In this document: positions 12,970 to 33,703 of the stretch, one piece after another
How positions within the stretch are numbered: position 1 is the first letter of the stretch
How the letters are laid out: each line of letters begins with the position of its first letter
Source of the DNA: a virus
Taxonomy: Duplodnaviria; Caudoviricetes
Length of the DNA stretch: 34,593 nt
Reading direction: 5' to 3' (one strand)
Virus record (IMG/VR): IMGVR_UViG_3300030110_004897
Location: 1-34,593 of that record
The notes under the pieces: generated by a model
What the model was told of the DNA's origin: nothing
The model's input: only the letters and a program-made list of their open reading frames with translations
Database searches by the model: none
Program-made: the position numbers and the translations under genes

Positions 12970-13191
12970 GTGAAGGAAATCATAACAATGGTAAAAGGAT
13001 ATATCGATGACTTAGTTCATTTGATGATATCTTTTGTAACCATCGGTGCTGTATCTGAAGTAATATTCGGTACTGGCGTCTTTGGTGTAAATGTTATCGG
13101 TAACCTAACATCTATCATAAACAAGTTCGGCGATTCAGGATTCGCTGGGCTCGTCGCCTTGTTGGTGTTGGTGGGTTTATTCCGTAAGTAA
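12970..13191 (+). CDS. Small membrane protein (only convincing plus-strand gene)
   Basis: GTG start with SD GGGAG, two hydrophobic segments, followed by a terminator. Confidence 0.75.
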   Translation: MKEIITMVKGYIDDLVHLMISFVTIGAVSEVIFGTGVFGVNVIGNLTSIINKFGDSGFAGLVALLVLVGLFRK

Positions 13192-13242: not shown

Positions 13243-13270
13243 GCCATAAATGCATGGTTGCTGCTTAATG

Positions 13271-13343
13271 TGGAGCTGACAGGAGTCGAACCTGCGACCT
13301 CTTCCGTGCAAGGGAAGCGTTCTCCCAACTGAACTACAGCCCC
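13271..13343 (-). tRNA. tRNA-Ala(UGC)
   Basis: GGGGCTG/CAGCTCC acceptor with G3:U70, anticodon arm CTTCC-CTTGCAC-GGAAG, GTTCGAC T-loop; CCA not encoded. Confidence 0.95.
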
Positions 13344-22052: not shown

Positions 22053-22555
22053 TTTCTTAACCTTTTTGGTAACACCTCCCAATTGTTTATTTCATTGACT
22101 ATCTTAGATTTATTACCTAATGATATTTTGTCTTCACTAAATAAACTCTTTAACCAATCTATGGTAAGCTGATAACCATTCTCCTTATAATGAATAATAG
22201 CTTTGTTAAAAAGGGTATCATAATCTATGTGCTTAAGAGTAGATGGTGTATCCACGAATACTTTTTTTGGTTTTGGGTTATATAGATTTTCATAATAACT
22301 ATCTAACCATCTATCCCAACTATTATCAACGTAAATACCTTTACCTTTTCGCGTCGTACCGACACTACGTCTATCTATGCGTTTGAGATTATTGGATGTG
22401 GTTTTAGAGACGGGTTGTACATAACCACCTGTTTTGTGTGGATAAACTGTGTGAGCCGAATAAGCCTCCACCTCACTACAATCTAAACATTCTGTATAAC
22501 CTAAATGTGCTCTTTGGTCTTCTAACTGAACGTTACATTTTTTACATTTATTCAT
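22031..22555 (-). CDS. Hypothetical protein with N-terminal C4 zinc finger (DksA/TraR-like spacing)
   Basis: CKKC-x16-CLDC with R..L; ATG lies 6 nt after the -10 box, so the mRNA is possibly leaderless. Confidence 0.65.
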   Translation of the reverse strand: MNKCKKCNVQLEDQRAHLGYTECLDCSEVEAYSAHTVYPHKTGGYVQPVSKTTSNNLKRIDRRSVGTTRKGKGIYVDNSWDRWLDSYYENLYNPKPKKVFVDTPSTLKHIDYDTLFNKAIIHYKENGYQLTIDWLKSLFSEDKISLGNKSKIVNEINNWEVLPKRLRKWAMKIK

Positions 22556-22560
22556 ATGTT

Positions 22561-22601
22561 AATATACGAAATATAACCTGTATTTGTCAAGCTTTTTTTT
22601 T
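22561..22601 (-). promoter_or_regulatory. Early-type sigma70 promoter cassette
   Basis: A9-GC-TTGACA (22585-22590), 18-nt spacer, TATATT (22561-22566). Confidence 0.85.
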
Positions 22602-22609
22602 GAAATTTT

Positions 22610-23012
22610 AGGGGATGTTGGGTTAGCGATTACCAACAACTTTCCGCTCAGATTTTATTTGCCCTTGTACCTACTACCCATCAGTTACGATGATTCTCCT
22701 TATGAATGGTTAGTCCACGTCAAAGTGAGTATAACCTCTGTAGTATTGCTTTATCTCTCTGAGTTTAGATTGATTCAGCCACAAGATGGGATTTCAGTTT
22801 TACCCTTACCCATAACAAGGTCTAAAGAATCGCTTCTTTATTTATTCTGAAAGTACCTTCTCCAACTACTATCGTAGGGTATTGTCAACATTTAGCCGAA
22901 TACCAACTCACCACAAGTCTTGAAGCGGATTGCCTTATGGGCTTCTAAAGGTTACCCATTGTTCAGCCAATCCCATACGAAGTTAATTACTCTTCGTACT
23001 TTTCAAAATTCC
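22610..23012 (-). ncRNA. Candidate large structured non-coding RNA (~400 nt), family unassigned
   Basis: No credible ORF, GC higher than the flanks, about 10 nested helices, a GCGA tetraloop, G-U wobbles that work only on the minus strand, and a long-range crossing pair. Confidence 0.65.
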
Positions 23013-23073
23013 AAATTGTCAAAAAACATTATATATATATCGAGAAAAATCTCAAAATACATTTTTATTTTTT

Positions 23074-23391
23074 TTAGTTAATCATAGGTTTTTGTTCATT
23101 CATAATTTCGTAAGTTAAAATAAATTTTTTATCTTTATCCTCATCCCACTCTTCGTAGTTTGTTAGGAAAGTTTTTGAATTTTTCTTACTGAATATTTTA
23201 TTAACCCTATCGACCTGCTTTTCGTTATTACATATTAAAGTTATTTTATTATGTGATGTTTGAATCATAACGCTATCTAAGACTTGCGTTGTCTTATTTA
23301 ATTTTTTTCTAAACCTTAAAGTTTGAAAAAATATTTTTATTGTTTCTTTTATAACTAAAAATGGATAAATTAATTTAATTAAAAAACTCAT
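23074..23391 (-). CDS. Hypothetical protein
   Basis: 105-aa ORF overlapping the upstream stop. Confidence 0.65.
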   Translation of the reverse strand: MSFLIKLIYPFLVIKETIKIFFQTLRFRKKLNKTTQVLDSVMIQTSHNKITLICNNEKQVDRVNKIFSKKNSKTFLTNYEEWDEDKDKKFILTYEIMNEQKPMIN

Positions 23392-33154: not shown

Positions 33155-33295
33155 TGTATTTCTCCAGTTATTAGCGCTGATTATTTTTTAGCTCACCGCT
33201 TAAATTTACGAAGCGAATCCTGACTATTGAATAGAACAGTGATGTCATCACATCCTATTCGCTTCGACCTAAGGCGCCTCTCAGGTCAGTTATTG

Positions 33296-33367
33296 AGCGG
33301 TGTTAGAGAATCGAACTCCACCCTCTTCTATGGAATAGAAGCGTATCACCCTTGATACTTCCACCGC
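33296..33367 (-). tRNA. tRNA-Gly(UCC), atypical
   Basis: G1-C72, C2-G71, U73; anticodon arm CTTCT-ATTCCAT-AGAAG; TGGAG-TTCGATT-CTCTA T arm; deviations are G7.A66, A8 and A32. Confidence 0.7.
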
Positions 33368-33508
33368 AAATCAAAAATGTCCCACCCGCCTATTTCAGTA
33401 CTCTGAATTAAAATGAAAAGTCTGAAATGTCCTCGTTTTCAATTAGAGAAGAAAACTACAAAACCACTCACGATCAAATCTTTATTTATCAATCAAATAT
33501 CATACATA

Positions 33509-33548
33509 AATATACGACATTATTTTGTTAATGTCAAGCCTTTTTTTT
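33509..33548 (-). promoter_or_regulatory. Early-type sigma70 promoter cassette
   Basis: TTGACA (33532-33537), 17-nt spacer, TATATT (33509-33514). Confidence 0.85.
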
Positions 33549-33556
33549 AATTTTTT

Positions 33557-33638
33557 TGGGCGCCTGGTGGGAATCGAACCCAACGTTGTAACCTCCGGAG
33601 TTACACCACTCTCGGTCTTAAGACCGCTTTTCAGACAC
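33557..33638 (-). ncRNA. tRNA-like RNA (acceptor stem, T arm and CCA; non-canonical D and anticodon arms)
   Basis: GTGTCTG/CAGGCGC stem then CCA; TGGG-TTCGATT-CCCA; internal hairpins CGGTC-TTAA-GACCG and TGTAAC-TCCGGAG-GTTACA; dedicated promoter. Confidence 0.55.
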
Positions 33639-33664
33639 ACTAAGTCTTATTTATCTTACACCTT

Positions 33665-33703
33665 AATATACGAAATAAATCAATACGAGTCAAGCCTTTT
33701 TTT
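33665..33703 (-). promoter_or_regulatory. Early-type sigma70 promoter cassette
   Basis: TTGACT (33688-33693), 17-nt spacer, TATATT (33665-33670). Confidence 0.85.

Follow-up and report, generated by a model that had tools for sequence, protein, structure and literature searches.

The minus strand of positions 22612-22998 specifies a conserved RNA of about 390 bases which consists of two interlocked copies of manA (RF01745). These positions refer to the window, i.e. the whole stretch of DNA that was analysed, a linear viral record with a length of 34,593 bases. An outer manA carries a second, circularly permuted core within its P8, and this doubled form is a variant of the family and not an ordinary single-core member. 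The first-pass annotation had described the region as a large, pseudoknotted phage non-coding RNA, which is borne out by covariation among homologues and by the manA match; the Rfam match and the covariation also confirm the minus strand as the RNA strand. By analogy with the cages described for manA, we believe with slightly better than even confidence that the nested double manA, likely made as its own transcript, is a covalent two-core subunit which would self-assemble into an RNA-only particle.

Homologues of the element

Searching with exact patterns, taken from long forms and lying in either the 5' half or the middle hairpin, yielded 281 loci, a redundant set in which some contigs occur twice. 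A profile search of these loci gave 236 full-length copies, 41 partial ones, all of which are cut by the end of the locus or contig, and four loci without a match. Because each fetching pattern covers only one part of the element, yet the other part is constantly present, the two halves travel together. Over all loci, 214 copies have complete ends; 128 of them are distinct and 68 differ by more than 5%. These 68 representatives are 386-403 nt long, with a mean identity of 70%, whereas ordinary manA has about 190 nt.

Other searches were less productive. A junction pattern was too loose (true element in 2 of 120 loci), and the eleven loci of a first core pattern comprise four long forms, two short manA and five without a match to the long-form profile. 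One exact pattern run on the GTDB genomes gave a single match, which is not a homologue, and blastn of the stretch against 50,697 phage records gave a single chance match of 27 nt. Among 16 loci fetched with the downstream gene, the RNA was found only in the near-identical L002 and L015 (L001 is cut short); as the RNA is absent from most of these loci, gene and RNA are unlinked.

Assignment of both halves to manA

At gathering cut-offs, Rfam found only a tRNA in the whole window. The manA model matches 22612-22814 on the minus strand with 53.7 bits (E 6.3e-13, gathering cut-off 55.2, P2 deleted in the alignment), a match that is partly circular because 3' halves of the double form sit in the original manA alignment. 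The 3' halves of three homologues (L015, L020, L022) reach 64.7-69.3 bits and thereby exceed the cut-off. When the 5' half is scanned alone (22783-22998), it matches the whole manA model with 28.1 bits (E 1.1e-5), and every manA helix is present in order in the Rfam alignment. Both TGGCTGAA and CTTGTGG occur twice, as had been noticed before; TGGCTGAA is the manA core motif, one per core. RNase P, tmRNA and group I/II introns gave no match at the stretch with Rfam models or ARAGORN, in agreement with the earlier remark that their hallmarks are absent.

Covariance models were built per core from 38/68 rows and run on ten long forms and on 38 single-unit manA loci (36 from a set of 86, plus L019 and L024). 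The core-B model finds all 38 single-unit loci with 31-52 bits (E<=1.2e-5), a result unaffected by the circularity mentioned above, and gives five off-target matches at 12-15 bits. The core-A model lands at the core position in 35 of the 38, with individually weak scores of 12-20 bits and no off-target match in 75.8 kb. Sequence-only profiles recognise core A as manA above shuffles in 0 of 68 cases and relate core A and core B to each other in only 4 and 2 of 68, and the per-core covariance models detect the opposite core, weakly, in only 4 and 3 of the ten long forms. Core A is the more diverged core, and its homology rests on structure together with short motifs.

Fold and covariation

All 75,855 column pairs of the 68-row alignment were scored by a G-test with background correction, using our own script and not R-scape, and were called significant when they exceeded every value from 40 tree-based null alignments of two kinds. 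In total 26 column pairs do so, each of them Watson-Crick-like and pairing in at least 96% of the rows, and six of these are long-range or crossing. A model of 106 pairs, which was derived from the same alignment and omits the P8 tip helix owing to gap shifts, has 96.8% of 7135 cells paired versus 35-46% when slid, and 72 of its pairs show changes on both sides. Column by column, pairing in the P6A arm is poor (68-75%).

From 5' to 3' the element is composed of P1, the P2 5' strand, core A, the outer P8 5' strand, the P8 tip hairpin, inner P8, a P9-like hairpin, core B, inner P8, J8, outer P8, P9 and the P2 3' strand (Table 1). The inserted core B is opened at the P1/P2 position, closed by its own P8 strands and without a P2 of its own, which leaves two cores with one P1, one P2, one P8 tip and two P9. 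Helix numbers follow the Rfam consensus as we infer it to map onto the text of the manA cage preprint cited below.

P2 is paired in 68/68 rows at all five pairs, one of which changes from G-C to A-U in seven rows (three parsimony events); its covariation is not significant against the null alignments of the 68 rows. Inner P8 is 99.7% paired, with 22819/22664 above all nulls and 22816/22667 at E about 0.1. Rfam reads the inner P9-like hairpin as the P1 that belongs to the 3' half. A kissing partner was not found for this hairpin, and a sequence-only test against outer P9 was above shuffles in 1 of 68 rows. Outside the core, the arms of a terminal helix P0 form more stable duplexes with their own partners (-7.7 kcal/mol) than with swapped partners (-5.8, sd 0.24) in 67 homologues. 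The predicted 3' end of the core lies at 22612, where one RNA-library contig begins.

Table 1. Features of the double manA element and its immediate surroundings (positions in the window).
Feature	Position	Strand	Remarks
Sigma70-like promoter	23028..23055	-	TTGAGA, 16 nt, TATAAT; 11/12 matches
boxA-like leader motif	23015..23025	-	within 45 nt upstream in 57/67 homologues
Terminal helix P0, 5' arm	23005..23015	-	inverted repeat with 22599..22609
P1 hairpin	22976..22998	-	22996/22978 above all nulls; 92.6% of cells paired
P2 5' strand	22970..22974	-	pairs with 22612-22616, closing both cores
manA core A	22860..22969	-	manA match E 1.1e-5; core-A model; covarying pairs
Core A sub-parts	P3 22930-22969; four-way junction 22860-22925	-	long P6A arm
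Core A loops	L5A 22909-22915; L7A 22870-22873	-	L5A UGUGGUG; L7A GAYA
Outer P8 5' strand	22848..22853	-	pairs with 22640-22645; 22849/22644 and 22850/22643 above all nulls
Single P8 tip hairpin	22823..22840	-	loop L8 22830-22833 kisses outer P9 loop 22626-22629
Inner P8 strand	22816..22820	-	pairs with 22663-22667, closing permuted core B
Inner P9-like hairpin	22786..22813	-	22813/22786 above all nulls; aligned to manA P9 with the 5' half
manA core B	22672..22781	-	manA match E 6.3e-13; core-B model
Core B sub-parts	P3 22746-22781; four-way junction 22672-22745; P6B bulge 22718-22720	-	
Core B loops	L3B 22758-22763; L5B 22730-22735; P6B loop 22707-22713; L7B 22683-22688	-	P6B loop CUAACCA
J8 strand	22647..22652	-	kisses L3B; 22760/22650 above all nulls; 22761/22649 E about 0.15
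Outer P9 hairpin and P2 3' strand	22612..22637	-	22635/22619 and 22634/22620 above all nulls
Terminal helix P0, 3' arm	22599..22609	-	inverted repeat with 23005..23015
Separate sigma70-like promoter	22561..22590	-	TTGACA, 18 nt, TATATT; precedes next gene (174 aa)

The twelve helices of the first-pass annotation were tested on the 68 homologues. Seven of them hold: 22976-22982/22992-22998, 22937-22942/22954-22959, 22866-22869/22874-22877, 22786-22790/22809-22813, 22672-22677/22740-22745, 22616-22621/22633-22638, and 22647-22652/22758-22763, the last one as a pseudoknot that crosses the covarying helix 22816-22820/22663-22667. Three more survive in part. Helix 22878-22883/22899-22904 does so as a variable arm; the strands 22927-22932/22968-22973 are complementary in 60-68 of 68 rows but conflict with covarying pairs; and 22823-22829/22834-22840 is indeed a hairpin, of variable length, whereas its GCGA loop is a kissing loop and not a conserved GNRA. 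Docking of this loop as a GNRA was rejected, as it varies to ACGA, AUGA, GAGA and UUGA, with matching changes in its partner.

The remaining two helices had to be given up. The proposed closing helix 22844-22852/23001-23009 pairs in only 40/64 and 45/68 rows at two of its four pairs inside the alignment, and a long-range helix with significant covariation takes up its 3' strand. The proposed GTGAGT/ACTCAC pseudoknot pairs in 26/68 and 38/52 rows at two pairs, and both of its strands lie in covarying stems. The folding-energy comparison that had been proposed was uninformative for this copy, which folds no better than shuffles (z -0.81 on the minus and -1.08 on the plus strand); 19 homologues have a mean z of -1.8.

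Kissing loops and possible contacts between the cores

In single-unit manA of the cyanophage type, three complementary loop pairs can be seen by eye, L5-L7, L3-J8 and L8-L9. The kisses L8-L9 and L3-J8 both covary significantly. For L8-L9, 22833/22626 and 22832/22627 are above all nulls, and an alignment-free count gives 117/128 versus 47% for swapped partners; the looser 128-sequence alignment gap-shifts the L8 columns and lowers the counts for this kiss, which the alignment-free recount restores. The kiss between J8 and L3B is 100% paired, with 7-8 parsimony events per column that are always matched. One P8 tip therefore serves both cores, L8 reaching the outer P9 and J8 the L3 of core B.

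Further contacts, three between the cores (L5B-L7A, L5A-L6B and L6A with the P6B bulge) and in addition a base triple, are suggested by the alignments. L5B (GUURUA) and L7A (GAYA) can pair in 128/128 sequences at all three positions; their compensation amounts to one evolutionary event (E 5-42 in the covariation test). In the 2010 alignment supplement, two single-unit NZ_ rows have these two loops side by side in one core, as their L5 and L7. L5A-L6B corresponds to the cyanophage-type pair GUGGU/ACCA and is 96.7% paired without a two-sided change, being broken in a subgroup of 4-5 rows. Between L6A and the P6B bulge a single pair covaries (66/68, not significant), and a triple (22767-22756/22683) that changes from U-A/U to C-G/C in two events links P3 of core B and L7B. 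As to pairing within the same core, L5A-L7A is broken at one pair in 47/127 rows, and the pairs of L5B-L7B could each form in 115-128 of 128 rows, without compensation.

In five homologues (L153, L163, L170, L173, L175) both L5A and L6B have changed and are out of register. The new L5A of this subgroup overlaps a six-base palindrome, which could permit a self-kiss or a shifted pairing.

Proposed assembly of a two-core subunit

According to the main text of a recent preprint (Ren et al., 10.64898/2026.07.01.735769), single manAs assemble in vitro into pentamers, octamers, decamers and a 60-mer T=1 cage, as seen by cryo-EM, and the intermolecular contacts named there are L5-L7', L8-L9' and L3-L8'. 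Because the long form keeps the manA contact types, divided between two cores, we read it as a covalent A-B subunit. The double manA would have originated by duplication. Its cores share one P8 tip with two sticky parts, of which L8 goes to the outer P9 and J8 to the inner L3, and the loops that have no partner (L3 of core A, inner P9) have changed. By analogy with the manA cages, at least some of the kisses would be intermolecular and would give rise to a closed particle, which in the infected cell may scaffold or sequester something. The analogy to cage-forming ornate RNAs drawn in the first-pass annotation may thus apply through manA itself.

Alternatively, all kisses might be made within one molecule, so that the nested double core would be a monomeric pseudo-dimer, acting as a decoy or platform for a host protein or ligand, in which the fusion replaced assembly. 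We regard this as possible, though it stays clearly short of an even chance. The covalent linkage sets the cores side by side, all three junction contacts run from core A to core B, the two spare loops have lost their partners as expected with reduced valency, and for two manA RNAs the same preprint deposited only monomer models. However, the equivalent contacts are intermolecular in the two manA pentamers which it describes in detail, and a single chain might not easily accommodate five kisses together with a triple.

The self-assembling subunit could be taken one step further, to a natural two-domain capsomer with even rings or an A-B shell, as part of RNA-only particles that marine phages would make in infection; this we consider doubtful. 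In this reading the junction loops pair A with B and not A with A; if these contacts run head to tail, a ring with alternating cores needs an even number of them, and a five-fold ring like that of single manA cannot be copied. If true, this would be the RNA counterpart of the fused, duplicated domains in pseudo-T virus capsids.

Transcription and gene neighbourhood

The double manA is likely made as its own transcript and not as a 5' UTR, because it has its own promoter-like site, P0, a boxA-like motif, varying neighbours and RNA contigs of matching extent. Sites like the upstream sigma70-like promoter occur 4.8 times per shuffle, which makes it weak alone; a looser TTT(G/C)..TATA pattern is present in 60/67 homologues with flanks, a stricter one in 14/61. 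The motif at 23015..23025 we take to resemble the boxA of rRNA antitermination. In many single-unit manAs (L432-L549) a box resembling TATAAT or TATAAATA can be seen by eye shortly before P1, which hints at a separate promoter for ordinary manA as well.

Of 24 listed sequencing runs, 20 contain the element stretch, and 13, from 11 studies, are recorded as RNA. In four runs, each from a different study, RNA-library contigs extend over 22612 to about 23020, and one contig of 369 nt, which spans both cores, is identical to 22623-22991. Outside the element, a 2.6-kb stretch gave only a divergent 69-nt piece and 31-nt pieces. Since the runs were chosen for containing the element, and the contigs carry no strand, ends or level, their confinement to the element is a weak hint at a stand-alone transcript.

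Among 56 homologues, the previous gene belongs to 28 families and the next gene to 13, at a median distance of 198 nt. The commonest next-gene family (35/56) is presumably ssb-like, judging from its sequence, and Hsp20-like next genes occur in 8/56. Between RNA and gene, 44/67 homologues (e.g. L020, L158, L179) share a conserved element, to the eye a long hairpin whose outer arms vary but are complementary, with a T-rich/A-rich inner stem around CCAC and a T run; it gave no Rfam match in L015, L020 and L022. The window is without this element and has the second promoter-like site there instead. In three loci (L322, L348, L369) a sequence which by eye resembles the window's atypical tRNA (see below) lies directly 3' of the double manA, and in L024 a tRNA follows a single manA, as it does for some single manAs.

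These neighbours also bear on the reading as a tandem cis-regulatory element, i.e. a two-aptamer riboswitch or leader controlling the next gene. In the text of Weinberg et al. (PMC2864571) manA is listed as a cis-regulatory element and probable riboswitch that precedes, among other genes, those for ibpA chaperones, and the predominance of one next-gene family as well as the Hsp20-like genes would fit this. We nevertheless consider it improbable, given the distance and diversity of the next genes, the hairpin/T-run element that intervenes in most homologues, the separate promoter-like site after the RNA in the window, a structure without an overlapping expression platform and, as a weaker point, the RNA-library contigs that stop short of the next gene.

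Genome setting

The record is about 20% complete, and nearly all long ORFs in the window's list are on the minus strand. A PHROG family was found for 13 of 27 scanned proteins, including baseplate wedge, Hsp20, a Mom-like enzyme, endolysin and PhoH, and the AAA ATPase has its best match to a named phage at 54.6%. The double-manA stretch is flanked by ORFs of 105 aa and 174 aa, both without a PHROG family. All element-containing sequencing runs that name a source come from marine or seawater samples.

The ORF-poor gap reported earlier was confirmed (22556-23073, 518 nt). It is, however, not the largest non-coding gap, as had been stated, since 33155-33701 has 547 nt. Its GC content is indeed above that of the 400-nt flanks (0.40 vs 0.34 and 0.21), a value reached by 6% of 684 window tiles. 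Three short plus-strand ORFs overlap the gap; coding by them was rejected, as the conservation is explained by the minus-strand covariation.

Several other structured regions were noticed, all on the minus strand. An atypical tRNA at 33296-33367 (34.6 bits, cut-off 29, E 3e-5, UCC at the anticodon position) was missed by ARAGORN and by the whole-window Rfam scan. It lies in the GC-rich, non-coding stretch 33186-33640, where a second hairpin at 33568-33582 is T-arm-like (tmRNA model, 8 bits only) and 33186-33289 holds further unexplained hairpins. An ordinary tRNA-Ala(UGC) at 13270-13343 adjoins the sole sizeable plus-strand ORF that looks real (12970-13191).

Comparison with known RNAs

The first-pass annotation had proposed either a novel large RNA or a compact relative of GOLLD or ROOL. 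That the element is one of these, with manA likeness confined to the 3' half, is very improbable: the 3' half does fall just below the manA cut-off and the 5' half is weakly manA-like, but GOLLD, ROOL and OLE are without a match at gathering (window) or at E<=10 (22500-23150), three homologues have 3' halves that score above the cut-off, and the 5' half has the manA helices in order, the core-A model landing only on manA cores. GOLLD and ROOL are likewise large phage non-coding RNAs of unknown function that form RNA-only cages, as described in the available text of Kretsch et al. (10.1101/2024.12.08.627333), where ROOL is also reported to be abundant. They differ in their helices and in size, the solved ROOL having 659 nt and many GOLLDs more than 800 nt.

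The doubled form seems to be previously undescribed, although its 3' half was already aligned as ordinary manA in 2010. A search of openly available literature, including passages of PMC2864571, PMC9964418, PMC7779021, 10.1101/2020.02.04.933952 and 10.1101/2024.12.08.627333, gave no description of a doubled or nested manA, and the main text of 10.64898/2026.07.01.735769 does not mention it either. In the alignment of Weinberg et al. (PMC2864571, supplement 5, manA.sto), at least five rows are exactly the 3' half of the double form; P2 is left as a gap in them, and the inner P9 stands in the place of P1. The RF01745 model was therefore trained partly on half-molecules of the double form. A text search of that supplement for strings from the 5' half, which gaps limit, gave no manA row.

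manA has been a riboswitch candidate of unknown function since 2010, and its RNA-only cages in vitro were reported only recently. A natural fusion of two cores whose loops can be told apart and covary opens two questions to testing: whether selection acts in nature on the contacts between manA units, and whether manA functions as a leader or as a free RNA. The double manA is also a ready A-B subunit for cryo-EM and for the design of RNA particles.

With manA as described in the 2010 paper and its alignment (RF01745, PMC2864571) the double form shares the motif UGRCUGAA...UAAGGYRAU, P3, the four-way junction of P4-P7, P8, P9 and the closing P2, and also the setting in marine phages. In contrast, it has about 390 nt instead of about 190, its second core is circularly permuted and nested, its contacts of the L5/L7 type probably cross between the cores, and it looks like a stand-alone RNA and not like a 5' UTR. 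With the manA cages, as far as the main text of the preprint (10.64898/2026.07.01.735769) goes, it has the contact types L5-L7, L8-L9 and L3-L8 in common if our mapping of the helices is right, and its core B shares loop sequences with the two single-unit NZ_ rows, which are probably the Photobacterium copies. The manAs of the preprint, however, have fewer than 200 nt and one core each and form rings of five identical units, whereas the double form joins two distinguishable cores in one chain.
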